Shown here: positions 11,775 to 37,602 of the stretch, in pieces
Numbering within the stretch: the first letter of the stretch is position 1
Layout of the letters: every line of letters begins with the position of its first letter
Assembly: GCA_964450015.1 (NCBI GenBank)
Contig: CAYVEU010000001.1
Location: 1 to 44,209 of the forward strand
Source: an uncultured Christensenella sp.
GTDB taxonomy: Bacteria > Bacillota > Clostridia > Christensenellales > DTU072
Direction of reading: 5' to 3'
DNA: 44,209 bases
The notes under the pieces: generated by a model
The model's database searches: none
Seen by the model: only the letters and a program-made list of their open reading frames with translations
What the model was told of the DNA's origin: nothing
Position numbers and translations under genes: made by a program

Positions 11775-11810
11775 AAAAAAATTCCGTGTGTAATTACGCG
11801 GAATTTTTAC
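11775..11810. terminator. Bidirectional hairpin flanked by A- and T-runs
   Basis: aaaaaattccgtgtg-taatt-acgcggaattttt. Confidence 0.5.
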
Positions 11811-17813: not shown

Positions 17814-17879
17814 TCTCTCTCCTTGTTTGATGGGTAGATTATACCATATCATTTAGCCGTATTCAAGGAAAAATGCTAA

Positions 17880-20583: not shown

Positions 20584-23244
20584 TTATTTATGATTAGGAC
20601 TTATAGGCGTCCCTGCCTTTATTAAATTGATACCGTCCGCAACGTCGAATAACGTATAAACGACGTCGCTTGCAACGACTTGAAAGCTCGTACGTTCCCG
20701 CGCCGAGCAAATAGCAAAGCATTGCCCGTTGCCTGCCGTTGCAATCTGGTTGCGCTCCACGTCGTTGATTTCGCCTGCATTTCGATACAAGTCTGTAAGT
20801 ATCTGCAGGTCCGCAGGTGCAAGGCTGAAAATAAACGAATATTGCGCGTTATTTATAATTGCCGTAGTCTTTTGCACGACAGCACTATTGCCGATAATAT
20901 CCGACAAATTTTGCGTTAAAAACGCTATGCTACCGTCGTACTTTCTTATACGTTTATACCATAAGAAAACGAACTCCAACGCAATAGGATACTCTGCGTC
21001 AACAAAGTTATAGCCCTCATCGAGCACGACGAACGGGTGCAACGGTACGCTTGAGTTACGGTTAAGCTCTCTTATATTGATAATCTGTTGGTCGAGATAG
21101 CGCATGATAACGAGCATTTGCGCGTTAGCAACGACGTTGTTTTTCGCCGCAAAAAGTGACTGAAAGTTGAATACAACCAGACGTTCATCTGTCGTAAGCG
21201 TAGAAGCTCCGTTCCACAAATTGGCGAACCGTCCGCCTGCCGCGAACTTTGCAACGTACGTTCTAATGCGGTCGAGGTTCTCGTGTCGCATGGGCGACGT
21301 TTCTTTCTCGAACTCCTCTTCAACCAACGATTTCAAATCGTCAAACGTCGGAAAGGCGTCCGCGCCGAGTTGCGTACAGTCCGTCGTTTCATTAATACCG
21401 CGCTTCGCGTATAACTTGCTCAACAAGTTGTTAAGCTCCTCAAGCGCGTCTGACGTAATACCCTTGAGCGTTATCGAAAAGAAGCTCTCAAGAAAACGCA
21501 AGTGTGCGCTGAATACCGCCTCGGGTGCGGCGGGGCTTCCGTCATCTGTTAGTATTTGATATATATGTAACGGGTTCAAACGCCCTTCGGTCGCGTTGCC
21601 CACGTCGATGAACCGCCCCTTTACGTTACGGCATAAGTGTAGATACTCATTTTCTGGGTCAAGAATAAAAATCTTTGAGTTATCCGAATACACAAGAGAT
21701 AACAACGTCTTTCCGAAAAACGATTTACCGCTTCCAGATTTACCGAGAACCATAATATTTGAGTTTATGTACTGTTTGAAATCACGCTTCCATATATCCA
21801 AAATAACGGGGTAATAATCGTAACCGAGCGTAAAGCCCTTAGGCTCGATAACCGAAGTAAAAACGAACGGGAATACTCCTGCAAGGCTTTCGGAATTTAT
21901 GCCGCGTTCTAAACTCTTCAGCGCGGTGCGTCTGGATATGCTCGCCGTGGCGAAACCGTCGAATTGCCTGCCCCGTAACATATTTATTCGGAAGCCGTTA
22001 GATTGTATTTGACGTCGTAAATTCTTCTTAAATGCGGCGTTTGTTTCTGTTGTGTTATTATAGCCCGTTATCGTGATAGAGCAGTCGAATAGCAGTTCGT
22101 TTTCGTTCTGTAATTGCTTTGCAAGCTCCGCCATCGTTTGCACGTGCGTTTCTTGACTTATAGCCTGGCTAATCTTCCCCGTTCCGCCGCGCCTAGTTTC
22201 AAGCTCGACAACGGCGCGGTCGATACGCTTAACCGCTTTGTCTTTATCGACGGGTTTTATCGTCAATACGACTTTCGTATTGTCGATATTAAACAGCCCT
22301 GCCCCCCATGCGTTGCCAACGGCAAGCGGATAATCGGATATAGCGCACGTGAAAGAGTAAACGTCATCGCAAACACATGAATTTGCCGTAAACCGAATTT
22401 TGTCTGGCTTGACAAATTCGGCAATATCTTCTGCCTCGTAAATATCGCGCTCGTCAAAGTTGCGGTTATAGCAGTATTTGAAAAAGACGGCTATTTCCAT
22501 ATCGTCAAGAATAGACGTAGGCAAACCCGCAACGTCGAACGCTCCGCGCGCAAAATCTAATTGCTTCAGAACCGCCTCTCTATCATCATCGTAGACAACA
22601 AAATAGTAATACGGACGATATTGTTTTTCGACGTTGTTTAAGCTATCTATTTGCCCTAAACGGCTCTTTAATATCGCAATTTTAGCCTCGTCTTGCTCTT
22701 TTGCCTTTTCCGCCGCTTCGAGCTTTTCAAACAAGTTCGCCGCTACTTCGTCGTAGTTTATCGGTCTATCGAGCTTTACGAGTTGCACAACGGAATTTTC
22801 GCCCAGTCCGTTCAACAAGCTTGCAACGGCGGATATACGGCGATTTTGTTCTATCTCATCAAGCAAGCCGAACTCAATACTTCCAACGGATAAAACCGCG
22901 CCGTAATAATTGCCGTAATTTATGACGCCATCATCTTCGATACTCTGAAACGGTAACAGTTCGGTAACATTACCCCTCTTCGCTCCCTTGGTATATTTTT
23001 TTCGCGAAACGAAATAGCGTATCATGTAGATTAAATCATTATACATACGCTCTCCGTTGTCAGAAAAAAACAGCATGACCGAAATCGATGCAAAGGCTAA
23101 AAGTTCCGCCCATTTATAGCGAAAGTTACTCATTGCTATCAAAAACGCAATCATACCTAGCCCAAAAGCTAAAACTATATCCAAAAGTGTAAAGTTCCGC
23201 CATACGGTTGGGTTTACTTTTGATTTCTTCGGAATAATTCTCAT
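20584..23244 (-). CDS. VirB4-family conjugative ATPase with an N-terminal VirB3/PrgI-like two-TM segment
   Basis: 886 aa. Walker A LGKSGSGKSF and Walker B-like FVVLDEGYNF. N-terminal TM pair (LLDIVLAFGLGMIAFLIA..). Confidence 0.85.
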   Translation of the reverse strand: MRIIPKKSKVNPTVWRNFTLLDIVLAFGLGMIAFLIAMSNFRYKWAELLAFASISVMLFFSDNGERMYNDLIYMIRYFVSRKKYTKGAKRGNVTELLPFQSIEDDGVINYGNYYGAVLSVGSIEFGLLDEIEQNRRISAVASLLNGLGENSVVQLVKLDRPINYDEVAANLFEKLEAAEKAKEQDEAKIAILKSRLGQIDSLNNVEKQYRPYYYFVVYDDDREAVLKQLDFARGAFDVAGLPTSILDDMEIAVFFKYCYNRNFDERDIYEAEDIAEFVKPDKIRFTANSCVCDDVYSFTCAISDYPLAVGNAWGAGLFNIDNTKVVLTIKPVDKDKAVKRIDRAVVELETRRGGTGKISQAISQETHVQTMAELAKQLQNENELLFDCSITITGYNNTTETNAAFKKNLRRQIQSNGFRINMLRGRQFDGFATASISRRTALKSLERGINSESLAGVFPFVFTSVIEPKGFTLGYDYYPVILDIWKRDFKQYINSNIMVLGKSGSGKSFFGKTLLSLVYSDNSKIFILDPENEYLHLCRNVKGRFIDVGNATEGRLNPLHIYQILTDDGSPAAPEAVFSAHLRFLESFFSITLKGITSDALEELNNLLSKLYAKRGINETTDCTQLGADAFPTFDDLKSLVEEEFEKETSPMRHENLDRIRTYVAKFAAGGRFANLWNGASTLTTDERLVVFNFQSLFAAKNNVVANAQMLVIMRYLDQQIINIRELNRNSSVPLHPFVVLDEGYNFVDAEYPIALEFVFLWYKRIRKYDGSIAFLTQNLSDIIGNSAVVQKTTAIINNAQYSFIFSLAPADLQILTDLYRNAGEINDVERNQIATAGNGQCFAICSARERTSFQVVASDVVYTLFDVADGINLIKAGTPISPNHK

Positions 23245-23260: not shown

Positions 23261-25162
23261 TTATCTCGGTTTTGCCCATCTCGGTTTGTCGCCGTCTGGC
23301 TTATTGCTTTTTAACATGTCCCCTGCCATATCTTTGACGCGGGTGTCGGTTCCTGTTGTGTTCTCCCCGTTCGGGCTAACCGTACCGTTGCCGTTAGGTT
23401 TATTATCGCTTCGATACGCGTTTCGTCCCTTGTTTATTCCATATCCAACCGCGCCGATAACGCCGTTCTTAAATACGGTCCGACCTTTATCAATAGCACT
23501 GCCAACCTTTTTGCCTGCATTCTGGAAAAATGCGCCAACTCTGGTTTTGGGTTCTCTATATGCAGATTGCCTTTCGGTGTTATCCACGCTCGACTGTTGC
23601 ACCGGTGCATTATTCGCCGTTGCGACGTTGCCCGCTTGCACACCGCCCATTGACGGGGTGCTTGAACGCCTAATGCTTCCCAAGCCGCGCAAGGAATTAA
23701 CGACCGAACCCACTTTTTCGGCGGCTTTATTCATCGTTGAACGATAAGCTTGACCACCCAAAATATTGCCTGCGGCGTTAGTCGCAACGCCTGCCGTTTT
23801 ACCCAAAACGCGCATTGCGCCTTGAGTGTGCCTACCATATTTGTTAGTACCGCCAAACACTGCATTTTTGGCAGAGTGAAGTATTCCGCCTGCCGCCGCC
23901 GCGCCACCGACGAGAGCGCGCGCCGATTGCGCCATTTCTCTACTTTCTTCAGCCGACGTTCCGAATACTCTTGCGATAAGAAGCTGTCCGCCGTTTATGC
24001 ACAGTGCACCGCCTATAAGCATGAACATCTTAAAAAGATTTGAGCTGTAGGCGGACCACCCGATTGAAACAAAATCTATGTTTTGAATTACGGGAATTAT
24101 AAGTAAAAATACATTTACCGATATAACGGCTCCGTATGCAAGTATAACTTTCGATACAACGGTGTCACGCCAGGCTTTAAGCCGTGCACCGTCATCAAGC
24201 GGTATCGTCGCGGATATTAACGGCAACATTATAAATAATTGCACTAAATCAAATATTCTTTTTACAAGCCCGAGCATAGACCAAATAATGGCTACAAGAA
24301 CCATTATTAATACGAAATATGCCGTCACAAAGTTAAAACTGTCCAGTTCTACCATCGGACTATCAACGTAGCCAGAATCTTTCTTCTCAAGGTCGATAAG
24401 GTTTGTATGCCTAACACCGAAAACGTCATCTACCGTGGTTAGCCCAAAGTGAATATCGCTTGCGTTATAAAAAATACCAGTTTCTTTATTCTTGCACCAA
24501 CCGCTTTTAGTGTCGAACGTACCATCCTCTTTCTTCAAAATCGGATAAACTGTTCTAGTCGTCTTAATAGGAATAAAATCCCCATTGTCGTCTATCATTT
24601 TATTGCCGTCTAGGTCTGTTTTCCAAAGCAAATTTCCGTATTCATCGGTTTGTTGCACTTCTTCAAATGTTGGGTTGTCATAATCATAAACATAAACTTC
24701 CGATACGCTCATGTCAAAAAGACGGTTGGCTATAGTCAGCGTCGAGCCATCAGACGTTGCAAAGTACACTTTTTGCAATACTATGTTAGAACCCCATATT
24801 CCGAAAATCATCATAAAGCCCATTACAAGCGTTATGATTATTGCGCCCAAACCTTGCCCTACGGTTTTAGCGTGAGATTTCCGCTCGCCGCCTTTCATAT
24901 TGACAATATTTTTCACGACCGAAACGATAACGGATATTGCGCACACGATAATAGATACTAAAAATATCATTAGAAAAGCTTTCGTAACCACGCTACTCTC
25001 AATAAATATTTCCACTATCGAACGTGAAACCGTTTCTCCGTTCTCCGTGTACTCTACGGTATCAATACCGCAAAGCACACGAAACATTTCAAATATTGCG
25101 TCCAGAAACTCATATAGCCAAAATAACAATTTGGCGGACGTTTTTCCTATTAAAATTCCCAT
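23261..25162 (-). CDS. Polytopic membrane protein, VirB6/TrbL-like channel candidate with a Gly/Ala/Asn-rich C-terminal tail
   Basis: 633 aa with at least 6 predicted TM helices. Its position between the VirB2-like gene and VirB4 is typical for VirB6 analogues. Confidence 0.5.
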   Translation of the reverse strand: MGILIGKTSAKLLFWLYEFLDAIFEMFRVLCGIDTVEYTENGETVSRSIVEIFIESSVVTKAFLMIFLVSIIVCAISVIVSVVKNIVNMKGGERKSHAKTVGQGLGAIIITLVMGFMMIFGIWGSNIVLQKVYFATSDGSTLTIANRLFDMSVSEVYVYDYDNPTFEEVQQTDEYGNLLWKTDLDGNKMIDDNGDFIPIKTTRTVYPILKKEDGTFDTKSGWCKNKETGIFYNASDIHFGLTTVDDVFGVRHTNLIDLEKKDSGYVDSPMVELDSFNFVTAYFVLIMVLVAIIWSMLGLVKRIFDLVQLFIMLPLISATIPLDDGARLKAWRDTVVSKVILAYGAVISVNVFLLIIPVIQNIDFVSIGWSAYSSNLFKMFMLIGGALCINGGQLLIARVFGTSAEESREMAQSARALVGGAAAAGGILHSAKNAVFGGTNKYGRHTQGAMRVLGKTAGVATNAAGNILGGQAYRSTMNKAAEKVGSVVNSLRGLGSIRRSSTPSMGGVQAGNVATANNAPVQQSSVDNTERQSAYREPKTRVGAFFQNAGKKVGSAIDKGRTVFKNGVIGAVGYGINKGRNAYRSDNKPNGNGTVSPNGENTTGTDTRVKDMAGDMLKSNKPDGDKPRWAKPR

Positions 25163-25180: not shown

Positions 25181-25486
25181 TTATTGCTGTGCGGCAACCC
25201 AGTTCGAAAGTGCGGCTATGAGTAACGGCGCGGCTACTGCCACCACGAAAATTACCACGATACCTATCACGAACGACCAAAGTGCATTCTTTGCCTCTTT
25301 GCGCTTGTTTTCATCGCCACCGCTACGCCAAAACTTAAAGCCTAAATAAATGCCCCATATCGCGGTCAAAGAAATCGCTATGGCAATAAGCGGTTGCCAC
25401 ATACTGTCAAACAGACTGGATAACACGTCGCCGAATGACTTAAATTCTCCATTATTGGTGGTTGTTACTGCTAAAAAATTAATCAT
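25181..25486 (-). CDS. Small two-TM membrane protein (possible VirB2/TrbC-like subunit)
   Basis: 101 aa. Two hydrophobic helices are separated by a basic loop (FKFWRSGGDENKRKEAK). Position only; no motif-level support. Confidence 0.35.
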   Translation of the reverse strand: MINFLAVTTTNNGEFKSFGDVLSSLFDSMWQPLIAIAISLTAIWGIYLGFKFWRSGGDENKRKEAKNALWSFVIGIVVIFVVAVAAPLLIAALSNWVAAQQ

Positions 25487-25535: not shown

Positions 25536-28500
25536 TTATTTTATCGACTGCTTCCTGCGGTAAACGATGACGCCTATAACGACGGCTAACGCGACTACTG
25601 CACCTAGCGCAATCACGACTATGCCGTAAACGTTGATGTAGTCAAGCTCGAAGTAGTAAACGCTCTCGTTTCCCAAAGCGTCAGTTACTATCAATTCGTA
25701 GTTTCCCCTTTCTGTGATTATGGAATTAGGCGAACAGTTTACAAGCTCGCCGTTGCGATAAAGCATATACGTAACGTTATCTTTATTTGCCTTTGAAAAA
25801 ACGACTTGATTTTTTTCTTGTGTTATTTCAATCTCCGGTGCAACGGTATCTACTGTTAAATCTAACGCAAATTCATTCTCGCCGTTGGAAAACACAAGAG
25901 AATAATTGCCGTTATCTTTTAATTCGACGGATACCCCCACGGCATAATCGTTGCCGTCCTTTGCAACAAATATTTGATAGTCATCTGGTGCCGTAATCAA
26001 GTAATTGTTTGCCGATGACGGCACGATAACCCATTCGGTAGTAAAATTATTGCCCAGTTCATCAGTAGCGGTTAGCGAATAACTGCCTACCTCTTTTATC
26101 AAAGACGTATAACTCACTTCCTCGCCGTCCTTTATCAGAATAGTGGTTACTTTTTCGGAAAACTTAATGTTTACCGAGCCTGTTAATATTTGTCCAGAAA
26201 GTAACGACGGGCTTATTTGTACGTCCACATCATTATCTATCACAAATTTATACGTGCTTTCATTCCCCGCAACGTCAACGGCATATACCGTGTACGTCCC
26301 GCTCTCTTCAACAGTGCAGGAACCCTCTATCTCGGTGGTTTCGCCTGCCTTGTCCTTGAAATAAGCGCGTCGCGCGCCCTCAACACTAATTTCTACTTCG
26401 TCCGCCGATTTCCCACCGTTTTCAACGGTTGCGGTAATCAACGGCGCCGTCTGGTCGATAATAATTAGAAACTCTATGTCATTACCGTTCATATCGGAAA
26501 TATAAACGCTATATTCGCCCTCAAGCTCAATACGCGCGCCCTCAATAACGCTAACGTTGCTCTCGCCATTGACGGTAAAAGCTTGATACGCTTCATTCAC
26601 TTGTATTGCAACGCCTGTTCTTGAAAAAATAACGTCGCCGTCGTAATTAAATACCCCTTTTAAGGCATAGCTTACTGACGCGTCAACGGTCACGGTAAAG
26701 CTAACGCTGTTGCCCACGTAATCGGTTGCGGTAAAATAATAAATTCTTTCATCGCTTAATACGCTACCGTCATAAGTCGTAAAATTAATGCCGTTCGTAG
26801 AATACGTAATTATTGCGTTCTCTTCATCAACAACCACGTTAAAGGACCGATTGGACACGCTGTCAATTTGCACATTGGTACCCTCGTCGGTTAAAACATT
26901 AGGCGTCGGCGCAGTCTTGTCAATTACAAGCTCGATTATCGCAACGTTGCCTGCCATGTCCTCTATTGTAACAATGTAACGCCCCTCAAGAGATACCGTT
27001 TCGTCTGCACCAAACGTATAACCGTCGGCGTTTTCCACGTCGAATCTCTTTACATCTTCTTGTAAAACTACGGCTAAGTCCGTTCTGGACGAATAGACGT
27101 TTCCGTTATTTACGTAATTGCCGCGCACTGTGAAGCTCACGGTAACGTCAATAATAACAACAAACGCGCTTTCGTTCCCTACGCGGTCGCTCAATACAAA
27201 ATAGTACGTCCCGCTTTCGGTAAATGCCGTGCCGTCGTAATCGCTATAAGTCGTACCGTTGGGCGAAACCGTTATTCTAACGTCTTCTTCTTCGCAACTT
27301 ACGGAAAAACTCTCGTTTATCTTTGAGTTAAGCTCAACAACGCCCGTTTCCGTCGTTATTAACGCCTCGGGCGGCGTCTTATCAATTACAAGCTCGATTA
27401 TAGCGATGTTGCCTGCTAGGTCTGCTATCGTTACCGTATAGCTACCCTCGCGTGAAACCGTTTCTCCAACGCCAAACGCATAACCGTTAGAACTTTCGAC
27501 GTCAAATCGCATTATATCTTCTCTCGTTTCAACGCTCAAGCCCGTTCTGGATATGTAAAGATTGCCGTTGTTTATGTAGTTGCCCTTTACCGTATACACG
27601 ATACTTAAATCAATCGTTATCGCAAACGAAACTGTGTTCCCGATAAAATCTGAAACTTCAAAATAGTACGTCCCTGCAACGCTACACACGCTACCGTCAT
27701 ACGCATTGTATTTGATACCATTCATTGAAAATGTTATATCGGCTTTATCCTCTTGACACGTCACGATAAAGCCGTCATTGATAATCTCGTTTGCGCCTAC
27801 TTCTTTGTCATTTACTGTCACAATCTCATAACTAGGTGCAGTTTTATCAATTATTATCGTGATAACTTCTTCATTGCCTGCAAGGTCTTTTATTTTTACG
27901 GTATGGGTTCCTTCTTGTGTTATTTTTTCTTCCGGTGCAAACTCATTAGCCAGACTGTCAACGATAAATTCCGAATACTCCTCTTTTACCGTTACGCTTA
28001 CTCCGCTAATGGAAATATACGCGCCGTCCGACGTGCGCTTATATATTCCGTTGACGGTATAATCGACAACCAAATCTATTTCGACAGTAAATGCAATTTC
28101 ATTTCCGACAAGATCTGACAGTCGGAAATAATAAACCCCACTTTCGGCTAACGGTTCGCCGTTATAAACGCTACCGTTTGACGTTTCGGATGCCGCGATA
28201 TTAAGCGTATAATTGCTTTCCGCACACGATACGAAAAACGCCTTGTTTACCTTGCCGTTCGTGACTACGCTACCGTCTTCTGCAATGATTATAGGAACGG
28301 GCGCGGTATAGTCTAAGATAAGCGTTACGTTCGCAACGTTACCAACCGTGTCCGTAATCGTTACGTAGTAAACGCCCTCAAGCGCAATGCGCTCTTCGGG
28401 TAAAAAAGTTATATCGTTCTCATTCTTTACGACAAACGCGGAAAAGTCCTCGTTGACAGTTACCGTAAAATTGTGCCTTGAAATATAGCTCCCGTCTTCA

Positions 28501-31500
28501 AGTTCTTTATACGTCCCTTTGACGCTAAATTGCACGGTCTTGTCAATCGTAACGCTAAATGAAAGCGTATTATTCATTCTATCGGTCATTTTGAAGTTAT
28601 AAACGCCCTCATCGGATAAGACATCCCCGTTATAGCCTACGTTTTGTGTCCCTCTACCGATAGCTATGCTGACGTTCTCTTCCTCGCATGATACGCTAAA
28701 GCTTTCATTTGTTGCGCCGTTCGCTTCGAGCATCGCGCCCGACGCCGTTACGATGATGGGAACAGGCGGAAGTTTATCTATTATCACTATGACGGTAATT
28801 GCATTGCCGCATACATCAACTATTTCAAATAAATAGGTTCCGTCTTCTGAAATCGTGCCGCCGTTCATTACGCTTATGCCGTTACTGGACGTGCAATTAA
28901 ACGTCTTCGTGTGTTCCGTGACAGTTAGTACTAAATTGTTTTTTGAAATATAGCTACCGTCCTCAAGCATTGAATACGGTCCGTCTATTATGTAGCTTAC
29001 TACGTTATCTAGCGTTATCTTAAAACTGGTTACGTTGCCCACTTGGTCGTTTAGTGTGAAAACGTACGTTCCCGCTTTAGTAATCAACGTGCGCTTGGTA
29101 TATAGCGTTTCGCCAAACGAACCCAACACGTCATTCTGGTTATAGTATCGAGCAGTAACGTTCGCCTCGTCCCACGTGACGCTAAACGATGAGCTTGTAA
29201 CCGTTTCCTCTTCGATTGTATCGCCGTTCTCGGCGGTAATCGTCGCCATTGGCGCAACGCAGTCAATCTCAAACCTATACTCTACGAATAGGTTCATATC
29301 GTTTTCAACGTACAAAAAGAACTTATAAATTAAGCTCGTTGCCTCATTTGCCGTTATGGACGCTATCGTATATCCCTCTTTTTCGGTCATAGTTAATACG
29401 CTATCGTACCTAACCCACTCTTTGTTAATAAGCGCATAAAGATAAATGGCGTCGCCGTCGTAATAATCAAAAGAAACGTCCTTGTTTGTTATCCCGCCCT
29501 CTTTTACGCCTTTTAGCGAACCCGACGGCAAGCCTTTCATATAAAATAACGGGTCTGTTTCTACCGTTCTACCGAATATATCGGAAAATCTAACCACATA
29601 TTTACCGCCAGTGCGCAACACATAAGACAAAGTTACTGCTGAAATAGGCGTACCGTCGCTGTCATACGTCAACTCCGTGTAATCGCCTAAATACGAAACT
29701 TTGAAAATATGTATTTCCGTTATGCCGTTATTCGAGCTGTCGTAATTAAGCGTCAACGTGCACCGCGTTTCGTTCGTCAGCGACGTGTTGGAAAGATATG
29801 CCGTTTCGCCCGCAATACGAATTTCAAAAGAAAGATAATTCATGCTACGGTCGTACACGTTTATAACGTACTTGCCATAATAACCGTTCTCAAGCGTCAA
29901 TACGGGCAATTCGTCGCCGTTTACGAAAACCGTATCGCTCATTCCTCGTCCAGATACGCACACCATGACGAACTCGTCAATATTGTCAAATAACATTTGC
30001 AAGTCCAACATAACGTATAACATAACGCCCACGTTAGCTTGGACAAATTCGTTAGTAAACGTAATTGCCGCCTGCTCGCCGTTCCCAAAAGTCGCCGTAG
30101 CGTTTAACGTCGGCATATCGTTATCGAGATAAACGACATATCGTTGCAAATTCCCACACAAGTCACTTTCCGAAACGAGATAATACCCCTGTATATTTGC
30201 ACCCTCTTTCTCCAACGCTTCGCTTATTGCCGTATCGTACGGTATTTCTATATTGCGACCTGTAAAAAGCATATAATCGTTGGCTATATACTGAAATTGG
30301 ACCTTTCTTGTGTTTCCCGTAACGCCCGCTATCGGGGAAATGAATTTATAGTTATGCTGAATTAAAAATAACGGTAAATTCGCATAATTTGCCAAAATCG
30401 ACGGATACGTCATATTCTGGCGCGTCAACGCGTCATCTCGCGTTATCCCGTTGCCGTCAGTCGGGTTCGGATAAGTATTGTTTCCTAATTGGGTTTCTCT
30501 TCGCTCTGAAACGTAAGCCGACGCATATTTCAATATGGCAGTATCTAAATCAGAACGCGACGTGTAAATTTGATAAACACTTTCGTTGGATATATTAACG
30601 TACGACCAACCGTTTTCCAGTTGCTCTACGCGGTATTCCCACTCTTTGGCGATAGCGAAATCAAGTGCGCTGTCACGACTGGTAAAAGAGTAGCTACCTG
30701 CTATATTCGCAAATATTCTACTAGGCAAGTTCGCGATATACCAGGTTGCAACCTTATACCCATTTTTTATGTTATCCATGTTCCCGAAATCGTCACGGTA
30801 ATAAAGCTTTACCGTTTGAGTTTCCGATTTATTCCCAAAGTCATCTACAGCGTAAAAAGTCCATACGCCGTAGTTGCTAACGTCAAGCGCAATATTGACG
30901 GTTCCGACACCGTTCGTCCGTTCTGCTCCGCCATTAAGCGCATATTTTATGGTTGCATTGTGTATATCCGACGCCGTATACGTGAACTCATAGTTCAAGT
31001 ATTCCGCTACGCTTGAAACGTCAGGTGCCGTCTTATCAATAATTATATGATAGGACGAAACGTTGCCCGCGCTATCGCTCAAGCACATTAAATAATAGCC
31101 CTCGTCACTTAACGTGGTATTGCGTGTATACGCAGTAGCCGCCGACGTCGGAAAAGCCGTTGTATTTTTTGAATTATTTATTGAATATCTTGCCGTCAGC
31201 GTATCGTTATTATTCATACGTTGCGTTCCGACGCCCTCTACATTGGTTCCCCACGTTGCAGAAAAACTGGCGTTCGAGCCGTTATATGTCAAGCCGCTTA
31301 AAAGCCCTTGAAGCGTTAGTTTAGGGGCTACCTTATCGATAGTACATTGATATGACGAACTATTGCCCGCCTTATCTGTAATTATGAATAGATAGTTCCC
31401 TTCTTCTGAAATTTGGCTTTTACTTGTGTATTCAATGTTTGCCGTTGTCGGAAAAGCCCCTGTAATCGACTTGCCATAAGTTACGACTATTTCATCGTTG

Positions 31501-34064
31501 CTATTCGTTCTCGCGGCTCCGACGCCACCGACTGTAGTTGCCCACGATGCGCTAACCGTCGTGTTTGAAAAATTGCTTCCGTTCACACCGTATAAAGTCA
31601 ATAACGGCGCGACGTTATCTATCGTTACTTTATAATCTGTATAATTCCCTGCCTTGTCGCTAATACGGAAAAAATAATTGCCGTCGTTCTTAAATTCGGT
31701 TCCAGACGTAAACGTTGTTGCCGCAGACGTCGGAAAGGTTGCCGACGTTAAAGTCGAATACTTTGCCGTAATCGCGTCGCTACTGTTTAGCAAGCATTCC
31801 GAACGCCAACTAACCGTGATACTGCCCTTATAAAAACCGCCGTTAGAAATGCTATTTAGCGTCGGTGCTTCCGTATCGAGATAAATTGTATACACGGCAC
31901 TTTGGTTGCCTGCTAAATCCACTCCGTAAAATTGATACGTACCATTTATCGACGCCTTATCCACTGTATAGCTTTTAGAACTCGTGCTACTATACGCTTT
32001 ACCCTCGGCACCTTTATAATACAACTTAGAAAAATTCTTATCTTCCACGCTTACGGTAAAGTTTGCATTGGTAAACCCGCCACTTTGAACAACACAAGAA
32101 ACAATAGGCAACGCCGTATCTATCGTGAACGTGTATGTTCTACTATTCTTCGCCTTATCTATCGCAACTATCGTATAGACACCATCTTCGGAAAACGATG
32201 TTCCTGTATTAAACGCCGTAGCTGTGCCGCTATCTTTCTTCCACGTTGCGCCCTCAATGTTCGTATCGCTGAATTTTACCGTTACCGCAACTTTAGCATA
32301 CCCACCATTAGCGGTGGTTCCGCCACTTAAGGTAATTTCCGGCAAGATTGTATCGATTGTAAACGTGAACATCGTACTGTTCTTCGCCTTATCCGTCGCG
32401 ACTATCGTATAAACGCCGTCCTCGGAAAACAATTTCCCCGTACCAAACGGCGCGGGCGTGCCGTTGCCTTTCTTCCATGTTGCGCCCTCAATATTCGTAT
32501 CGCTAAACTTTACCGTAACAGCGGTCTTTGCGTACCCACCGTCAGCGGTAGTTCCACCGCTCAACTTAATTTCTGGAAGCGTTTTATCTATCGTAAACGT
32601 TTTTGTTGACTTTCTTTTTGCTTTATCGTACGCTGTGACTGTGTAAACGCCGTCGGCAAGACTATTGTCTACCGTAAATGTAGTTTCAGCAGTCCATGTT
32701 CCCGCAATATTTGTAATTTCGTAATAATCTAAGTTCGTATCGCTAACGCTTACCTTTACCGACTGTTCCTTTTTGAAATATTCTCCGTTAGTCGTTATTA
32801 TCGGGTCTAGCGTATCTATTGTAAACGTGTACGTTCTGCTGTTCTGCGCCTTATCCGTCGCAACTATCGTATAAACGCCGTCCTCGGAAAACGATTTTCC
32901 CGTGTCAAACGGCTCTGCGGTGCCGTTGCCTTTCTTCCATGTTGCGCCCTCAATATTCGTATCGCTAAACTTTACCGTGACTGCGGTCTTTGCATACCCG
33001 CCGTCAGTTGTGGTTCCACCGCTCAACTCAATTTTCGGAAGCGTTTTGTCTATCGTAAACGTTTGGCTCGCCTCGTTATTGGCTTTGTCGTATGCGGTAA
33101 TCGTATAAACGCCATCGGCAAGGTCTTTTGCCGCATAAGTTTTATCACCAGTCAAGCCGCTCTCAATATTCGTAATTTTATAATCTTTTATATTTGTATC
33201 GCTAACGCCTACTTCTACCAACTGATTTTCATTAAAATATTCGCCATTTGTCGTTATTGTCGGGTTTACCGTATCAAGAATCACATAGTAATCGGCACTT
33301 CTATTGCCTGCTTTATCTACGGCATAAAACGTATATTTTCCGTCCCCGTTGTCGCTAGATATAGTAATTGTATTATTCGTTGTAAATTTATAAGCTTCAG
33401 AATTTTTCTGATAATGTATTTCATGAAAATTCTTTTCTGTGGCGGTTATGGTAAAATCATTAGAAGTATATCCGTTATTTCCCACCGTTCCTGATGATAA
33501 AGTCGGTTTTGTAACATCAACATAAATGGTTTCGGACGTAAAATCTATCGTATGTAGGTGTCCGTTCAAAGAACGTTTCCCCGTACCACTAATATGTACT
33601 TTATATTCGCCTTCCTCTACATTAAACGAAAATTCACCACCACCCTTATTCCATTGGTCATTCGCACCATGGTCTGTTTCCATTGCACGCTTAGTTGAAT
33701 AGTCGCTTCCGCCGCTCTGGCTAAGTAGCTCTATTGTTAACTCATCACAGTAAGCATAAAAACCGCCCATGCTTGCACTACCCATAGTAAACTCTAAAGC
33801 CACCTTTTTCTCGGGTATATACATTGAACCGTCACTGACGGCATTTTTTAATAAGAGGTTTGCTTGAAAATAATACGTGGTACTCGCATTACCGCTTCCT
33901 TTATAAAAGTCAAAATTTGCAATAAGTGTAGTTTTCCCGCTGGCCGCACAAGACGCGTCTTTGCTTATAGGGACAAATACGCTGATTGCTATAATTGCAA
34001 ATACCAAAATAAATAGCAAAATCTTGCCAAAAGATTGTTTCCTTTTTACCTCATAGCTTGACAT
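25536..34064 (-). CDS. Giant (2842 aa) surface protein made of Ig-like/beta-sandwich repeats, with an N-terminal signal/anchor and a C-terminal TM anchor
   Basis: N-terminus KILLFILVFAIIAISVF. Many ~78-aa modules end in ..DGVYT(I/V)xAxDKA(G/K)Nxxxxx(F)TID(K)T.P. About six ~152-aa two-module super-repeats. C-terminus YGIVVIALGAVVALAVVIGVIVYRRKQSIK with no LPXTG. The start overlaps the T4CP stop by 19 nt, with RBS gaggagg. Confidence 0.85.
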   Translation of the reverse strand: MSSYEVKRKQSFGKILLFILVFAIIAISVFVPISKDASCAASGKTTLIANFDFYKGSGNASTTYYFQANLLLKNAVSDGSMYIPEKKVALEFTMGSASMGGFYAYCDELTIELLSQSGGSDYSTKRAMETDHGANDQWNKGGGEFSFNVEEGEYKVHISGTGKRSLNGHLHTIDFTSETIYVDVTKPTLSSGTVGNNGYTSNDFTITATEKNFHEIHYQKNSEAYKFTTNNTITISSDNGDGKYTFYAVDKAGNRSADYYVILDTVNPTITTNGEYFNENQLVEVGVSDTNIKDYKITNIESGLTGDKTYAAKDLADGVYTITAYDKANNEASQTFTIDKTLPKIELSGGTTTDGGYAKTAVTVKFSDTNIEGATWKKGNGTAEPFDTGKSFSEDGVYTIVATDKAQNSRTYTFTIDTLDPIITTNGEYFKKEQSVKVSVSDTNLDYYEITNIAGTWTAETTFTVDNSLADGVYTVTAYDKAKRKSTKTFTIDKTLPEIKLSGGTTADGGYAKTAVTVKFSDTNIEGATWKKGNGTPAPFGTGKLFSEDGVYTIVATDKAKNSTMFTFTIDTILPEITLSGGTTANGGYAKVAVTVKFSDTNIEGATWKKDSGTATAFNTGTSFSEDGVYTIVAIDKAKNSRTYTFTIDTALPIVSCVVQSGGFTNANFTVSVEDKNFSKLYYKGAEGKAYSSTSSKSYTVDKASINGTYQFYGVDLAGNQSAVYTIYLDTEAPTLNSISNGGFYKGSITVSWRSECLLNSSDAITAKYSTLTSATFPTSAATTFTSGTEFKNDGNYFFRISDKAGNYTDYKVTIDNVAPLLTLYGVNGSNFSNTTVSASWATTVGGVGAARTNSNDEIVVTYGKSITGAFPTTANIEYTSKSQISEEGNYLFIITDKAGNSSSYQCTIDKVAPKLTLQGLLSGLTYNGSNASFSATWGTNVEGVGTQRMNNNDTLTARYSINNSKNTTAFPTSAATAYTRNTTLSDEGYYLMCLSDSAGNVSSYHIIIDKTAPDVSSVAEYLNYEFTYTASDIHNATIKYALNGGAERTNGVGTVNIALDVSNYGVWTFYAVDDFGNKSETQTVKLYYRDDFGNMDNIKNGYKVATWYIANLPSRIFANIAGSYSFTSRDSALDFAIAKEWEYRVEQLENGWSYVNISNESVYQIYTSRSDLDTAILKYASAYVSERRETQLGNNTYPNPTDGNGITRDDALTRQNMTYPSILANYANLPLFLIQHNYKFISPIAGVTGNTRKVQFQYIANDYMLFTGRNIEIPYDTAISEALEKEGANIQGYYLVSESDLCGNLQRYVVYLDNDMPTLNATATFGNGEQAAITFTNEFVQANVGVMLYVMLDLQMLFDNIDEFVMVCVSGRGMSDTVFVNGDELPVLTLENGYYGKYVINVYDRSMNYLSFEIRIAGETAYLSNTSLTNETRCTLTLNYDSSNNGITEIHIFKVSYLGDYTELTYDSDGTPISAVTLSYVLRTGGKYVVRFSDIFGRTVETDPLFYMKGLPSGSLKGVKEGGITNKDVSFDYYDGDAIYLYALINKEWVRYDSVLTMTEKEGYTIASITANEATSLIYKFFLYVENDMNLFVEYRFEIDCVAPMATITAENGDTIEEETVTSSSFSVTWDEANVTARYYNQNDVLGSFGETLYTKRTLITKAGTYVFTLNDQVGNVTSFKITLDNVVSYIIDGPYSMLEDGSYISKNNLVLTVTEHTKTFNCTSSNGISVMNGGTISEDGTYLFEIVDVCGNAITVIVIIDKLPPVPIIVTASGAMLEANGATNESFSVSCEEENVSIAIGRGTQNVGYNGDVLSDEGVYNFKMTDRMNNTLSFSVTIDKTVQFSVKGTYKELEDGSYISRHNFTVTVNEDFSAFVVKNENDITFLPEERIALEGVYYVTITDTVGNVANVTLILDYTAPVPIIIAEDGSVVTNGKVNKAFFVSCAESNYTLNIAASETSNGSVYNGEPLAESGVYYFRLSDLVGNEIAFTVEIDLVVDYTVNGIYKRTSDGAYISISGVSVTVKEEYSEFIVDSLANEFAPEEKITQEGTHTVKIKDLAGNEEVITIIIDKTAPSYEIVTVNDKEVGANEIINDGFIVTCQEDKADITFSMNGIKYNAYDGSVCSVAGTYYFEVSDFIGNTVSFAITIDLSIVYTVKGNYINNGNLYISRTGLSVETREDIMRFDVESSNGYAFGVGETVSREGSYTVTIADLAGNIAIIELVIDKTPPEALITTETGVVELNSKINESFSVSCEEEDVRITVSPNGTTYSDYDGTAFTESGTYYFVLSDRVGNESAFVVIIDVTVSFTVRGNYVNNGNVYSSRTDLAVVLQEDVKRFDVENADGYTFGADETVSLEGRYIVTIEDMAGNVAIIELVIDKTAPTPNVLTDEGTNVQIDSVSNRSFNVVVDEENAIITYSTNGINFTTYDGSVLSDERIYYFTATDYVGNSVSFTVTVDASVSYALKGVFNYDGDVIFSRTGVAIQVNEAYQAFTVNGESNVSVIEGARIELEGEYSVYISDMNGNDIEFLIIIDQTAPLITATVENGGKSADEVEISVEGARRAYFKDKAGETTEIEGSCTVEESGTYTVYAVDVAGNESTYKFVIDNDVDVQISPSLLSGQILTGSVNIKFSEKVTTILIKDGEEVSYTSLIKEVGSYSLTATDELGNNFTTEWVIVPSSANNYLITAPDDYQIFVAKDGNDYAVGVSVELKDNGNYSLVFSNGENEFALDLTVDTVAPEIEITQEKNQVVFSKANKDNVTYMLYRNGELVNCSPNSIITERGNYELIVTDALGNESVYYFELDYINVYGIVVIALGAVVALAVVIGVIVYRRKQSIK
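32215..33140 (-). repeat. Three near-identical intragenic DNA repeats (~235 nt each) inside the giant gene
   Basis: Units encode LP(K/E)I.LSGGTT.(D/N)GGYAK.AVTVKFSDTNIEGATWKK... Near-identical plus-strand shadow ORFs at 32224, 32458 and 32902 show conservation at the DNA level. Confidence 0.8.
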
Positions 34065-36298
34065 TCTCTTTCTACCTCCTCAATTTGCTCTGGCACAAAA
34101 CACCGAAATAAAATAAAATTCCTTACCTGTATAAACGTTGCAGAAAGTATATAATTACCCTTACCCGCCGCGTCATCAGCTAATCTATCTAGTAATACTA
34201 ATTTGGTCTTAATATCGCATCCGTAAAGTAGCTCAAACGTATCTTTCGGCGTCTTTCCCTTTAGGCATTGCAACCGTTTTTGCACGTCCGCCAACATTTG
34301 TACCGCCTTGCGCTTCCGCAACTCGTTTAACTCTTCCGTTTTATTTTCAACGACAAGTTGCGTATCGTTTCTCACGTCATCTATTTGTTGATAGTCCTCG
34401 CTTAAAAGCTGTTTTTCGGTTGTCATAAACGCCGTATATTTAGCTATATCGTAGTGCATAACGTCCTCATCAAAATCGATAAACTTACTAGGCTTAAGGT
34501 TTGCAGGCTCGGCGTTGTAAATATCTTTTGCTTTGAAAAACGGGGTAAATTTTGCCCTAATCGGATAATTACCCAAACACACAACTATTGCGTTGCCGAA
34601 AATTTTGTTTGCGGGGTCGTTCAAATGCTCAAGCTCATTCGGATAAATAAGCGGTACACTCTGCGCCGACGTCGATACCGACATTTCCTTATTCTCCGAA
34701 TAGCTGACCTGCTTAACTTTCTTTTTGCCGCACATATCTGAAAATGCTTTTCTTGTGTTCTCGTCATTTGTTCCGATAAATATCTGCGCGTTGCAGTTGC
34801 TCCGGATAATCGCCGCTACCTCTTTACCGTATTTATCGTCAAGTTGATTAAAGTCTTGGATAACAGGCATAAGCCATATATGCCTCGAACGTCCGACGGT
34901 AACTATGCTGTCAAGCTTATGGAAACGCGGCAAGTTGCCGAACTCGTCCATAATAAAGTAAACGTTACGCAATAGCTCTTGCGATTTTGTCTTGCCCGCT
35001 ATTTTATTCTCCGTTGCCTTTTCAACGAGGGCTTTATACATTTGAGTGATAAACAAGCTGACAAGCTTGTGACGGTTCTCCTTTTCGTCTGGAATTTTCA
35101 AGAATAACGCGTTCGCGGTTTCGTCAAAATCGCTAAACTCTATTGCGTTGCCGCTAGTAAGCGCGGCAATTCCCGTGTCCGCCATCCACGTTAAGTATTG
35201 ACTAACATCGCTCAAGTACGACGATAAAGTTCTATCCTCGGAAACGAGCACCGTATTCGACAAGCCGTGCGACTTCGATTTCGGCGAGCGAGTATCGAAA
35301 TACGCACGTAACTCTTCGCAATCTCCTTTGGCGTAGTCGCTTACGGTCCTATAAAGATTATAAAGACTAAATTTTTCCCGCGGCATATAGCCGTCGTAAA
35401 CGTCTTCCCAAAACGCAACTGCAATAGCAAGCAACAAATCGCGCGCACCCTTTTCCCAACCGCTTTCGTTTTTATTTTCAATCGGACACATGGTATAAAT
35501 TAAGTCCTGTAAGTCAACGAAAATTTCGTCCTTTAACCGTGCGACAATAGCCTTTCTAGCGTCCTCTGCTTCAGATTGCGTCAAGTATACATTGCCGTCG
35601 CAAAAATACTTGCCCCGTTTTTGCACTATCCTACAACCGTGAATGCGGTCTGTTTTGCGCCATACGTCATTAAATGGGTTCCATTGGGTAGAGTGATAAA
35701 CGTCAGCTAAATCTATAACGCTAACCTTGTACCCCTCTGCCATAAGCTTTTTACCATGGTGGTTATATAACTCCCCCTTTGGGTCGGTTATAAGCATAGA
35801 CGGCTTCGTCTTCGTCCTACACAATATTTCTATAGTCGGATCTATAATTGCCGACGTCTTGCCCGTTCCAGTCGTACCGACTAGAATAGTGTGCGTCGGG
35901 TCTTTCAAAACGACGTTTATATCATTGCCTTTTACCTCGGCAGAAATCGGAACGCCGTCATTAACTTTATGTAACTGACTTAATTTTGTCACGGTATATC
36001 CCTCATTCTTCGATATTTCCGTCCTGCTCATAAAATGAGAGTTCTCTAGGTCTGCGTTTACCTTTAGAACGCGTTTGCTTCCTCGCACCCTTATATCAAA
36101 AGCGACAACGCCTACTATAACCGCTATTACTGCACCCCATATCGCATACAGTTTCCCGTCTGTAATCGCCTCTACAAAATCTGTCTTAAATATGGTCATG
36201 GACAAAAAAGCCAACGCCAAAAGGACTACGACCGCCCCTGCTGTCAGTCCGAATATTGTCAATATTGTTTTTTGTAGTTTCGTCAACTCTTTCTTCAT
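34046..36298 (-). CDS. Type IV coupling protein (VirD4/TraG family)
   Basis: 750 aa with two N-terminal TM helices. Walker A VGTTGTGKTS and Walker B YFIMDEFGNLP. Confidence 0.85.
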   Translation of the reverse strand: MKKELTKLQKTILTIFGLTAGAVVVLLALAFLSMTIFKTDFVEAITDGKLYAIWGAVIAVIVGVVAFDIRVRGSKRVLKVNADLENSHFMSRTEISKNEGYTVTKLSQLHKVNDGVPISAEVKGNDINVVLKDPTHTILVGTTGTGKTSAIIDPTIEILCRTKTKPSMLITDPKGELYNHHGKKLMAEGYKVSVIDLADVYHSTQWNPFNDVWRKTDRIHGCRIVQKRGKYFCDGNVYLTQSEAEDARKAIVARLKDEIFVDLQDLIYTMCPIENKNESGWEKGARDLLLAIAVAFWEDVYDGYMPREKFSLYNLYRTVSDYAKGDCEELRAYFDTRSPKSKSHGLSNTVLVSEDRTLSSYLSDVSQYLTWMADTGIAALTSGNAIEFSDFDETANALFLKIPDEKENRHKLVSLFITQMYKALVEKATENKIAGKTKSQELLRNVYFIMDEFGNLPRFHKLDSIVTVGRSRHIWLMPVIQDFNQLDDKYGKEVAAIIRSNCNAQIFIGTNDENTRKAFSDMCGKKKVKQVSYSENKEMSVSTSAQSVPLIYPNELEHLNDPANKIFGNAIVVCLGNYPIRAKFTPFFKAKDIYNAEPANLKPSKFIDFDEDVMHYDIAKYTAFMTTEKQLLSEDYQQIDDVRNDTQLVVENKTEELNELRKRKAVQMLADVQKRLQCLKGKTPKDTFELLYGCDIKTKLVLLDRLADDAAGKGNYILSATFIQVRNFILFRCFVPEQIEEVERECQAMR

Positions 36299-36300: not shown

Positions 36301-37602
36301 CTAACCGTTTACCGCTTTTCCGTATTCGTTTTCACGTTCAATTTGTTTTACTGTCTTCATAAAGTTTGCCCGCTCCCCTTTGCAAACTTCGGTAAGCATT
36401 TTTTGAATATCCCGAATTGCGTCTACACGCTTTCCACGTCTGCGACGCGCCGCTATTTTTAGGCTCCTATCGTTCACACCGTATTTTCGTTTTTTATCGC
36501 GTAAATCGCCGTCCTTTATCATCTTGCAAAGCCCCATAACCACACCGCGTACGCGCTTTTGATAATCAGCCTGCAAACGCTCAAAATAATCAACATTTTT
36601 AAGGTCTACGTACTTCGGCTCAAGCCCTGGTCTACCCGCCATCACATCTTCTATCTCATCTTTGCTCATTCGCCTATTGTTGACGTAAGCAAGCTTATTT
36701 TCTTTTACGAGCTTAACCACGTTTTCCTTAACGCTCGCTAATTCCTTTATCATCTGCTCATGCGCCAGCCGTGCGTTCTCATCGGAAGCTATAAGCAAGT
36801 TGGCCACTAAATCAATTTGCGGATAAAGCGGTTCCATATTCTTGGACCCCGCCTGCAATCTACCAGTTTTAGGCAAACTTGCTATTAACCGATTAAGTTC
36901 ACGGTTAAGTTGCGTATTTCGCTTTACACCAGTTACAACGTCTTTGCGCACCACTTTTAATGCGTCCATTGCTTTATTTCTGGCAACGTAATATTCTTCC
37001 CCATGCTCGTCTAGGTGCATATTTGCGCTCACAAGATAATTATCAATAGCTTTTGCCTCGAATTTGCCTTTCTTTGTGTAACAAAGCTCATTGTTTTTAT
37101 CCCTACGCAACGGCTGTTTCTCGAAAAACGCAAAATGTATATGGCGGTTATCCGTATCATCATGCAAAGACGCATAAAGGCGTACGTTCTTTGGCTTCAA
37201 GTGCGTACGCTCTAAAAAAACGTTAAACGTCTGCTTTAGGAACTTAACGGCGTTCTCTTGAACATCAAACACTTCGTTATACTGTTCTTCAAAGCTTATG
37301 AAGCCGTGCCAGATTATGCTTTCCGTCTTTGCCAACTCCTCTTTCAGTTCCGCTACTTGCTCATCGCTCAAGACACCGTTCATATCGAAAAGTCCGCCGT
37401 TCGTACCCTCGCGCGTGAAGTAGTGCTCAGCGTCCTTATTCTTTACTACCTTTTTATTGTCCAAAGCATACGTAAAAAAGTTGTACTCGCTCGTAAGGTT
37501 ATAGAACTTACGACGTGCTTCGTACTTCTCACGGTCTTTACCTTTTAGGTAAGACGGTGGGTTGGGCTGTGTAAAAGCGATATTAAATAGTGCTTTTGGC
37601 AT
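36301..37602 (-). CDS. Putative conjugative relaxase (HUH/3-His type)
   Basis: 433 aa. LHDDTDNRHIHFAFFEK fits the relaxase H.D...(N/H).H.H metal-binding motif. It lies immediately upstream of the T4CP gene. RBS aggaga. Confidence 0.6.
   Translation of the reverse strand: MPKALFNIAFTQPNPPSYLKGKDREKYEARRKFYNLTSEYNFFTYALDNKKVVKNKDAEHYFTREGTNGGLFDMNGVLSDEQVAELKEELAKTESIIWHGFISFEEQYNEVFDVQENAVKFLKQTFNVFLERTHLKPKNVRLYASLHDDTDNRHIHFAFFEKQPLRRDKNNELCYTKKGKFEAKAIDNYLVSANMHLDEHGEEYYVARNKAMDALKVVRKDVVTGVKRNTQLNRELNRLIASLPKTGRLQAGSKNMEPLYPQIDLVANLLIASDENARLAHEQMIKELASVKENVVKLVKENKLAYVNNRRMSKDEIEDVMAGRPGLEPKYVDLKNVDYFERLQADYQKRVRGVVMGLCKMIKDGDLRDKKRKYGVNDRSLKIAARRRRGKRVDAIRDIQKMLTEVCKGERANFMKTVKQIERENEYGKAVNG

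Follow-up and report, generated by a model that had tools for sequence, protein, structure and literature searches.

Why should an operon for DNA transfer carry, between the gene for its coupling protein and the genes for its pilin and channel, an 8.5-kb gene for a giant repeat protein? The question is raised by a 44,209-nucleotide (nt) stretch of DNA from an uncultured Christensenella sp. (GenBank assembly GCA_964450015.1, contig CAYVEU010000001.1, positions 1 to 44,209; hereafter the window), which contains an element of about 25 kb (~17.2-42.4 kb) with a MobL relaxase and a type IV secretion system (T4SS). The gene in question (25536..34064, minus strand) is an intact open reading frame (ORF) of 2842 codons with an ATG start, as called within the window, and ORF coordinates and hydropathy predict that its product is a type I membrane protein. 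It takes up about one third of the element, as noted in a preliminary description of this DNA. Conjugation is a main route of gene flow in uncultured gut Firmicutes, where mating-pair formation is little understood; in the current view, Gram-positive systems rely for it on adhesins fixed to the wall by LPXTG, PrgB among them, or, in very recent work, on VirB2-like pili. We find that the giant gene is a real member of an undescribed family of membrane-anchored immunoglobulin (Ig)-repeat surface proteins whose genes follow the gene for the type IV coupling protein (T4CP). The genes and protein regions of the transfer operon given below all lie on the minus strand.

A homologue search covering 5.8e9 proteins returned 186 relatives of the giant protein, all unnamed or annotated as 'hypothetical', from metagenome bins of Clostridia or Bacilli. 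None exceeded 44% identity, and lengths ranged from 1569 to 4456 amino acids (aa) among the 120 matches listed. In each of five metagenomic contexts inspected, the homologue (24-41% identity) lies directly after a T4CP gene, the two either overlapping or standing no more than 13 nt apart, and the genes usually run MobL, T4CP, giant gene, pilin, VirB6-like, VirB4. With the T4CP protein as query we also gathered 80 genome loci (T4CP relatives 35-71% identical) from Christensenella, other Clostridia, Erysipelotrichaceae, Acholeplasmatales, Oscillospiraceae and Lachnospiraceae, and inspected the ORF following the T4CP gene in each. Nine loci, which are all of the complete loci with a T4CP at least 44% identical to that of the window, encode proteins of 1637-2393 aa with the same central core (class A). 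A hidden Markov model (HMM) of this core, A1, matches all nine with E-values of 1e-174 to 1e-260. A further 28 loci encode a second giant family of 2420-3084 aa (class B), with a signal peptide and a C-terminal transmembrane helix and without the class A core, and ten encode proteins of only 294-385 aa (class C), with a signal peptide, a C-terminal transmembrane helix and a basic tail. At 13 loci (class D) the ORF is 102-224 aa long, has no transmembrane helices and mostly an acidic C-terminus, and stands in a different gene order, with VirB4 upstream in most. Four complete ORFs without a C-terminal transmembrane helix are possibly broken genes; the ORF is still open at the contig end in 14 loci, and the T4CP gene is itself truncated in two. 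Overall, the protein following the coupling protein ends in a transmembrane helix in 47 of the 64 loci with a complete ORF, and 37 of these 47 proteins exceed 1600 aa. The size, topology and position of the giant protein had initially been called unusual; within this T4SS clade they are instead the rule.

Comparison of the loci showed that the order T4CP, family gene, pilin, VirB6-like, VirB4 is conserved. Copies of the element lacking the gene, which the preliminary description had taken as the mark of dispensable cargo, did not appear: no syntenic copy without the family gene was found among the closest relatives examined. The class A core (aa 1085-1640 of the giant protein) was matched in 74 of 119 homologues, and its α/β domain was found in at least 39 of the 119. 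A single-sequence search for loci with the central region found no relatives. A tblastn search of the plasmid database PLSDB with the central region and with the VirB6-like protein, a search that lay outside the tail module, likewise gave no matches, and PLSDB yielded distant matches to VirB4 only. Our literature searches found no description of a T4CP-adjacent Ig-repeat family.

Some features of the other classes are worth recording. Class B genes (e.g. L050 11911-19647; the 28 loci fall within L018-L070) come from Erysipelotrichaceae, Acholeplasmatales, 'Bacilli' and Clostridia bins; their products differ in the central region, match no Pfam domain and end in tails such as ..YHTKLKTDD. In class C loci such as L025 (8037-18494), L032, L043, L054 and L068, which come from bins of Acutalibacteraceae and Lachnospiraceae, the genes are arranged as pilin, 497-aa protein, T4CP, ~300-aa bitopic protein, VirB6-like and a very long VirB4 (~1235 aa). 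The L025 locus adjoins pyrimidine-biosynthesis genes and no relaxase was seen within the 22 kb examined; it may be a chromosomal T4SS co-opted for a role other than conjugation.

The immediate surroundings of the giant gene are those of a transfer operon. Its start overlaps by 19 nt (34046-34064) the end of the gene for a VirD4-type T4CP of 750 aa (34046..36298; Pfam T4SS-DNA_transf, E 3.8e-47, with TraG-D_C and TrwB_AAD_bind), and a Shine-Dalgarno sequence, GAGGAGG (34075..34081), can be read directly within the coding end of the T4CP gene, 10 nt before the ATG at 34064. Downstream, after 49 nt, starts the gene for a VirB2/TrbC-like pilin-like protein of 101 aa with a two-transmembrane hairpin (25181..25486; PF18895, 1.3e-6; NCBIfam Mbov_0395 family, 5e-10). 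It is followed by genes for a VirB6-like polytopic membrane protein of 633 aa (23261..25162; NCBIfam MMCAP2_0566, 3.5e-44; Mbov_0396, 1.9e-28; pLS20_p028, weak) and a VirB4-type ATPase of 886 aa (20584..23244; Pfam P-loop_TraG and DUF87). The ORF length, overlap, ribosome-binding site and gene order of the preliminary description are borne out by the ORF coordinates, by the sequence itself and by Pfam and NCBIfam matches. Upstream of the T4CP gene lies that for a MobL-family relaxase of 433 aa (36301..37602; PF18555, 4.3e-20). These genes belong to a tight single-strand string that runs from an ArdC-MutS_I-primase fusion through the relaxase to genes for a single-stranded DNA-binding protein and ParA, and intergenic gaps near the giant gene are -23 to +52 nt. 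No terminator-like site was found within the 49-nt gap 3' of the giant gene; promoter and terminator scans gave counts near the shuffled expectation and were uninformative. The 19-nt overlap and the strong ribosome-binding site would tie synthesis of the giant protein to that of the coupling protein, and the two are presumably co-expressed.

The element encodes VirD4, VirB4, a Mbov_0396-type VirB6-like protein and a Mbov_0395-type pilin-like protein, and the best annotated relatives of its VirB4 are 'Mbov_0397' ATPases of a Spiroplasma plasmid and Mycoplasma integrative and conjugative elements (ICEs), at 25-27% identity. By its matches to Mbov_0395, Mbov_0396 and Mbov_0397, the system falls close to the minimal T4SS of the Mollicutes type, in which VirB1 and VirB8 are missing (PMC12857230). 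Among the ORFs of at least 80 aa in the element, several small ones of which are without assignment, Pfam and NCBIfam searches found no VirB1-like hydrolase and no VirB8-like protein.

The giant protein is also linked to this T4SS clade by its C-terminal part. Its last 230-290 residues can be aligned colinearly with the ~300-aa proteins of class C, and an HMM built from class C proteins only matches aa 2616-2840 of the window protein with an independent E-value of 4.7e-22. The same HMM also matches the extreme C-terminus of the class A and class B giants; the module is common to 26 of the 28 class B proteins, those of L018 and L024 being the two that do not match. This base module (aa 2616-2842; 25536..26219), delimited by the HMM, comprises about three beta-sandwich domains, the transmembrane helix and a basic tail. 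A phmmer search of 1.84e9 representative proteins with the 227-aa tail gave 643 clusters at E <=1e-3 and 198 at <=1e-10. Among the 150 matches listed, 114 cover nearly the full module, and 104 of these 114 end within 15 residues of the C-terminus. Carriers of the module form a length continuum from 261 to 5063 aa among the matches listed; some of the short ones may be gene fragments, although the class C loci indicate that complete ~300-aa versions exist. Class A proteins conserve a juxtamembrane motif, L-x-Y-[IL]-N-x-x-G-I, and a tail, [RK][RK]-x-Q-x-[IV]-[RK]. Since the base module is common to ~300-aa proteins in the same slot, the window protein appears to be an enlarged form of a conserved T4SS-linked protein rather than dispensable cargo. 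The module is conserved, and probably ancestral, in a clade of minimal monoderm T4SSs, where its gene always comes straight after that of the coupling protein and before or close to the pilin-like, VirB6-like and VirB4 genes; it would place the protein at or beside the channel.

What has been built on this base? The C-terminal transmembrane helix (~aa 2813-2833; 25566..25628, by hydropathy) is followed by the basic tail YRRKQSIK, and there is no LPXTG-like motif (LPxT[GASN] type) anywhere in the 2842 aa. The preliminary description, which had reported this ending and the lack of a sortase signal, was correct on both counts, and the cryptic sortase signal that it had raised as a challenge to its view did not turn up in the whole protein. 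At the other end, ~aa 1-41 (33942..34064) have the parts of a signal peptide, with an n-region KRK, an h-region ILLFILVFAIIAISVFVP and a c-region ..SCA|AS; hydropathy places the hydrophobic segment at ~aa 14-32. Canonical AXA signal-peptidase sites are present in family relatives, which makes the N-terminal segment more likely to be a cleaved signal peptide than a second anchor. Of the 'signal/anchor' initially proposed we therefore retain the signal and drop the anchor, and a cleaved signal peptide with type I topology is the likely arrangement. No lipobox (L-x-x-C) is present in the N-terminus ..ISKDASCAAS. A distant homologue of 1631 aa from a 'Bacilli bacterium' bin (P0083; L004 10001-14896) combines a lipoprotein-type signal, ..LLVSC, with a C-terminal transmembrane helix, indicating that the mode of N-terminal processing differs within the family.

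Between these ends, the protein consists largely of Ig-like modules. A self-built HMM identified 28 modules of ~77 aa each with the signature G-x-Y...D-x-A-G-N...I-D...P, and with about four further divergent beta-sandwich domains in an AlphaFold2 model the total comes to ~32, in line with the dozens counted in the preliminary description. Behind the signal peptide lies a distal tip domain (~aa 42-188; 33501..33941), which is hypervariable and nearly an orphan as judged from comparison with the pooled family, database searches and alignment to a relative. It is followed by an N-terminal array of 11 Ig-like modules of the DxAGN type (aa 189-1084; 30813..33500, self-built HMM). A tandem duplication within this array (32116-32600; 234-nt unit, 2.1 copies, 77% matches at the DNA level) suggests a recent gain of a module and an array that is still expanding. 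The centre is formed by a conserved α/β domain with a beta-beta-alpha-beta-beta-beta-alpha core in AlphaFold2 models (aa 1085-1292; 30189..30812) and by a conserved core of about four divergent beta-sandwich domains, also from an AlphaFold2 model (aa 1293-1640; 29145..30188). A C-terminal array of ~13 Ig-like modules (aa 1641-2615; 26220..29144, self-built HMM), which mostly alternates two module types with a period of ~155 aa, leads to the base.

Searches with the giant protein gave little that resembles characterised proteins. The whole protein had no significant Pfam, NCBIfam or PDB-sequence match, with no Pfam match better than E 0.089; the central region had no profile match in the PDB, and Pfam gave none for any sequence in the α/β-domain alignment. 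AlphaFold2 modelled aa 1085-1640 from an 18-sequence alignment with a mean pLDDT of 87 and a pTM of 0.69, and Foldseek comparison of this model with the PDB returned generic Ig arrays only (PrgB Ig domains, titin, contactin) at TM-scores of ~0.15-0.2. Modelled in isolation, the α/β domain was confident for residues 21-110 only, which hold the beta-beta-alpha-beta-beta-beta-alpha core, and Foldseek found no PDB match for it below E = 1. We reject the idea that the non-repeat centre conceals a peptidoglycan hydrolase or a VirB8-like domain, as the model consists of the α/β domain followed by Ig-like sandwiches that match generic Ig arrays. Sequence and fold searches of the giant protein as a whole also revealed no hydrolase or VirB8-like domain, the tip (aa 42-188) not being among the modelled parts. 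The tip matched no Pfam, NCBIfam or PDB-sequence entry, and these searches recognised no adhesive domain in it.

The regions of the protein differ markedly in conservation. Compared with its nearest relative in this respect, L007 (T4CP 71% identical), the tip is essentially not alignable, whereas identity is 43% in the N-terminal Ig array, 59% in the α/β domain, 68% in the core sandwiches, which are the best-conserved part of the protein, 52% in the C-terminal Ig array and 50% in the base. The tip domain is recognisable in only two of ~190 pooled family proteins, P0011 and P0019. Both are distant members, and this recurrence points to domain shuffling. A search of the same 5.8e9 proteins with the tip domain found no relatives. 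A variable distal end over a conserved proximal body is a pattern like that of receptor-binding fibres.

Taken together, we favour, with our confidence about evenly balanced, a reading in which the giant is a T4SS-dedicated type I membrane protein with its base at or near the channel, a fibre ectodomain of ~100 nm and an exchangeable tip, that is, a fibrillar mating-pair adhesin made with the coupling protein. The protein would be Sec-exported and form part of the conjugation machinery of the ~25-kb MobL/T4SS element in a Christensenellales-like host. Its base, with about three beta-sandwich domains, transmembrane helix and basic tail, would hold it at or beside the transfer channel, and its ectodomain would have grown in this lineage into a stalk of ~32 Ig-like modules. 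A typical Ig domain measures 3.5-4.5 nm, and at this length per domain the stalk would reach ~100 nm if extended. The stalk would be broken by a compact conserved knob, formed by the α/β domain and four beta-sandwiches, and capped by a fast-evolving, swappable domain. Such a fibre could span the wall and beyond, its tip may bind a component of the recipient-cell surface, and this binding would form or stabilise mating pairs beside the channel. The mating-pair adhesin of the preliminary description fares accordingly: its link to conjugation is much strengthened, with a position fixed in every close relative examined, and adhesion is the best reading of an anatomy of stalk and variable tip. The VirB2-like pilin encoded by the next gene downstream casts doubt on the alternative offered there, a 'fibre substitute'.

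Several points weigh against this reading. All relatives are 'hypothetical proteins' of uncultured bacteria, and the adhesin role is a putative one; no known adhesive domain was found, the tip being without detectable relatives. The ~300-aa versions are too short to extend past the cell wall, so the conserved function of the base is probably something other than (long-range) adhesion. The neighbouring VirB2-like pilin gene could alone provide cell contact, the conserved central knob fits no assigned role, and docking to the T4SS is read from gene position. In addition, 13 related Lachnospiraceae loci have no such gene after the T4CP gene, so the arrangement is not universal.

The same short versions speak for a structural role, akin to the stand-in for missing channel or wall-spanning components suggested in the preliminary description. 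The base, and perhaps the stalk, could be a scaffold or a wall-spanning part of the channel or pilus base that replaces the VirB8- or VirB10-type components missing from this minimal system, adhesion being secondary at most. Such a subunit would explain why the base is kept down to 35% T4CP identity and always in the core operon, why its juxtamembrane motif and basic C-terminal tail are conserved, and why ~300-aa versions without the reach for adhesion occur; the element also has no VirB1-like or VirB8-like protein by Pfam and NCBIfam. However, Mollicutes-type systems also do without VirB1 and VirB8 (PMC12857230), so that nothing would need replacement. The protein moreover shows no likeness to VirB8 (NTF2-like) or another known T4SS fold, with generic Ig arrays as its only Foldseek matches; a stoichiometric channel subunit would not typically range from 300 to 5000 aa or carry a hypervariable tip, and the gene is missing from the related Lachnospiraceae arrangement. 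We consider a structural role unlikely. Another alternative, with which the hypervariable tip agrees, is surface or entry exclusion, in which the protein would block mating with cells that already carry the element, either by steric shielding or by recognising the incoming VirB6-like protein. Exclusion genes usually encode membrane or surface proteins within transfer operons and have hypervariable specificity regions, the ~300-aa versions match the typical size of an exclusion protein, and the long stalk of PrgA, which reportedly 'extends far outside the cell', is a precedent for shielding. An 8.5-kb gene would nevertheless be a very costly device for this purpose, and the giant protein has no similarity to PrgA or other known exclusion proteins in Pfam, NCBIfam and PDB-sequence searches. 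Its conservation is best in the centre and base and not in a specificity-partner pair, and exclusion proteins are usually dispensable rather than fixed beside the T4CP gene across deep divergence. An exclusion role seems distinctly improbable.

Binding to something other than a recipient cell must also be weighed, since giant Ig-repeat proteins are often colonisation factors. As a cargo adhesin, the protein would benefit the host by attaching it to gut mucus, host cells, particles or partner microbes, an accessory trait with no role in DNA transfer. The Ig repeats do resemble those of surface proteins unconnected with T4SSs, e.g. an SLH-domain protein of Sporosarcina (P0096), and the Spiroplasma ARP adhesins, in an equivalent position, have been implicated in adhesion to and entry into insect cells (PMC3485318, PMC1318496). 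Cargo genes, however, are not normally set between T4CP and pilin/VirB6/VirB4 genes with overlapping or abutting frames; here the gene is present in all nine of the complete closest loci and in all five metagenomic contexts, and its base module is common to minimal proteins in the same slot, even in T4SS loci with different surroundings. A cargo role is on these grounds distinctly improbable. More tentatively, at a level of belief well short of that for the adhesin, the structural and adhesive aspects could be joined. Gut Clostridia and Bacilli would then possess a large clade of minimal monoderm T4SSs, related to those of Mollicutes, with the ~230-aa tail as a core subunit that has so far escaped recognition, sits at the channel and couples outside events to the T4CP or the VirB6-like protein. 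The ectodomain would be a freely expandable 'antenna' with anything from three to over 60 Ig modules and an exchangeable tip that sets the recipient range, and the giants would be the single-polypeptide equivalent of a conjugative pilus plus tip adhesin, deciding the partners of DNA transfer in the gut.

Among described systems, the closest analogue in position and topology is the ARP of the S. kunkelii plasmid pSKU146. The Spiroplasma ARPs (SARP1, ScARPs and Sk-ARP1, annotated as 'DUF3688 family protein', on pSKU146, pBJS-O and the pSci plasmids) have, like the giant protein, a signal peptide, a repeat ectodomain, a C-terminal transmembrane helix and a short charged tail. The pSKU146 gene lies directly upstream of Mbov_0395, Mbov_0396 and Mbov_0397 genes (PMC1318496), with a 1-nt overlap, and these are the same T4SS families as in the window. 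The likeness has limits: the ARPs are ~800-865 aa long (865 for that of pSKU146) compared with 2842 aa, their repeats are of the sarpin type rather than the Ig/DxAGN type, and the T4CP gene is downstream of VirB4 in the Spiroplasma plasmid and upstream of the giant gene in the window. Comparison of Sk-ARP1 with the giant protein gave a single motif match of ~50 aa at 8 bits, which does not establish homology, and the giant protein has no DUF3688 Pfam match. The role studied for these ARPs is adhesion to insect cells (PMC3485318, PMC1318496). Transfer of the M. agalactiae ICE requires its surface lipoprotein CDS14, which has been proposed to promote contact between donor and recipient; CDS14 can be supplied by the recipient, suggesting a role in cell contact (PMC6030558). 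The CDS14 ICE (M. agalactiae/bovis) has the same minimal type of T4SS, with VirD4, VirB4, VirB6-like and small pilin/VirB3-like proteins and no VirB1 or VirB8 (PMC12857230). CDS14 itself is small, has an N-terminal lipid anchor and no Ig array, and is located downstream of CDS19, whereas the giant protein is held by a C-terminal transmembrane helix; no homology is apparent and the two are likened by description.

The example given in the preliminary description, PrgB of pCF10, stands as a functional analogy only. PrgB, an Antigen I/II-type protein, is a conjugation-linked surface adhesin with an Ig-like stalk, as we propose for the giant protein, and its Ig-like domains (8beg) are the top Foldseek match of the central region (E 1e-8), at a TM-score of only 0.16 and with titin and contactin scoring alike. 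What defines PrgB, a polymer adhesin domain and an LPXTG sortase anchor, is missing from the giant protein, whose anchor is a transmembrane helix; the gene for PrgB also lies upstream of the T4SS genes. The Bacillus subtilis plasmid pLS20 reportedly encodes in its conjugation operon a class II thioester-domain surface adhesin needed for efficient transfer, presumably wall-anchored, and is said to use a MobL relaxase. A MobL relaxase would be common to pLS20 and the window, and the VirB6-like protein of the window weakly matches the pLS20_p028 family. The pLS20 adhesin is much smaller than the giant protein, in which Pfam and NCBIfam searches found no thioester domain. Fibrillar adhesins in general have a tandem Ig-like stalk, a distinct N-terminal tip and a C-terminal surface anchor, as does the giant protein with its recent module duplication. 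Unlike them, it has a transmembrane anchor, a fixed place in a T4SS operon, a base module in common with ~300-aa proteins and a tip in which sequence searches recognised no adhesive domain. Conjugation adhesins are already known (PrgB, the pLS20 thioester adhesin, CDS14); the T4CP-adjacent family lacks the defining features of each and is covered by no curated model. A recent preprint finds VirB2-like pili to be common in Gram-positive systems.

Beside wall-anchored adhesins and pili, the locus points to a third, widespread arrangement, in which a protein anchored by a transmembrane helix is encoded beside the T4CP gene and combines a conserved base with an ectodomain of ~300 to ~5000 residues and a swappable tip. 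If the tip sets recipient specificity, family genes would help to predict which hosts can be reached by a large class of elements in Christensenellales, Oscillospirales, Erysipelotrichales and Acholeplasmatales, and would offer a means to block transfer or to redirect it. The ARP adhesins of Spiroplasma plasmids, seen so far as insect-adhesion factors only, would be linked to a general module of an adhesin gene before the pilin, VirB6 and VirB4 genes. The family also holds a well-conserved α/β domain without known relatives.

The remainder of the window concerns the element and its surroundings. An M20 peptidase encoded in the flank shares 75% identity with a peptidase from an uncultured Christensenella genome, the closest T4CP loci also come from Christensenella or Clostridia bins, and a related element lies on a contig of 25.3 kb. 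That the window is a circular plasmid was rejected, as it has no terminal overlap and chromosomal-looking genes on both sides; no tyrosine or serine integrase and no tRNA gene was found in it. At 15791-17116 (minus strand), adjacent ORFs of 211 and 177 aa correspond to the N-terminal and C-terminal parts of UPF0236, in our reading an ISLre2-type transposase. In the related element L001 an intact 451-aa UPF0236 copy occupies the same place after ParA, so that the pair in the window looks like a split pseudogene; it may formerly have been the integration enzyme of the element. The 955-aa fusion that heads the transfer operon (38585-41452, minus strand) joins ArdC-N, a zincin metallopeptidase, LPD25, MutS domain I and a helix-bundle of the NrS-1-polymerase type (primase-like). 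Its composition varies in relatives, the L003 version being 1389 aa long and including MuF_C. Two genes at the distal end of the element, beyond ParA and a RepB-regulator-like gene, encode a protein with a PBECR4 (barnase/EndoU/colicin-like nuclease) domain (17880-18695, minus strand) and a 201-aa protein without assignment (17247-17852, minus strand), which could be toxin or anti-defence cargo. The flanks (734-13234 and 43700-44209) carry a MoxR, DUF58, transglutaminase and VWA set, a 1259-aa BspA-type leucine-rich repeat (LRR) lipoprotein, a fused MFS/spermidine-synthase-like protein and a 23S-rRNA-IVS protein. Judged by nucleotide sequence alone, a further BspA-type LRR gene seems to lie at the right end of the window; if it is one, the element may have inserted among surface-protein genes.

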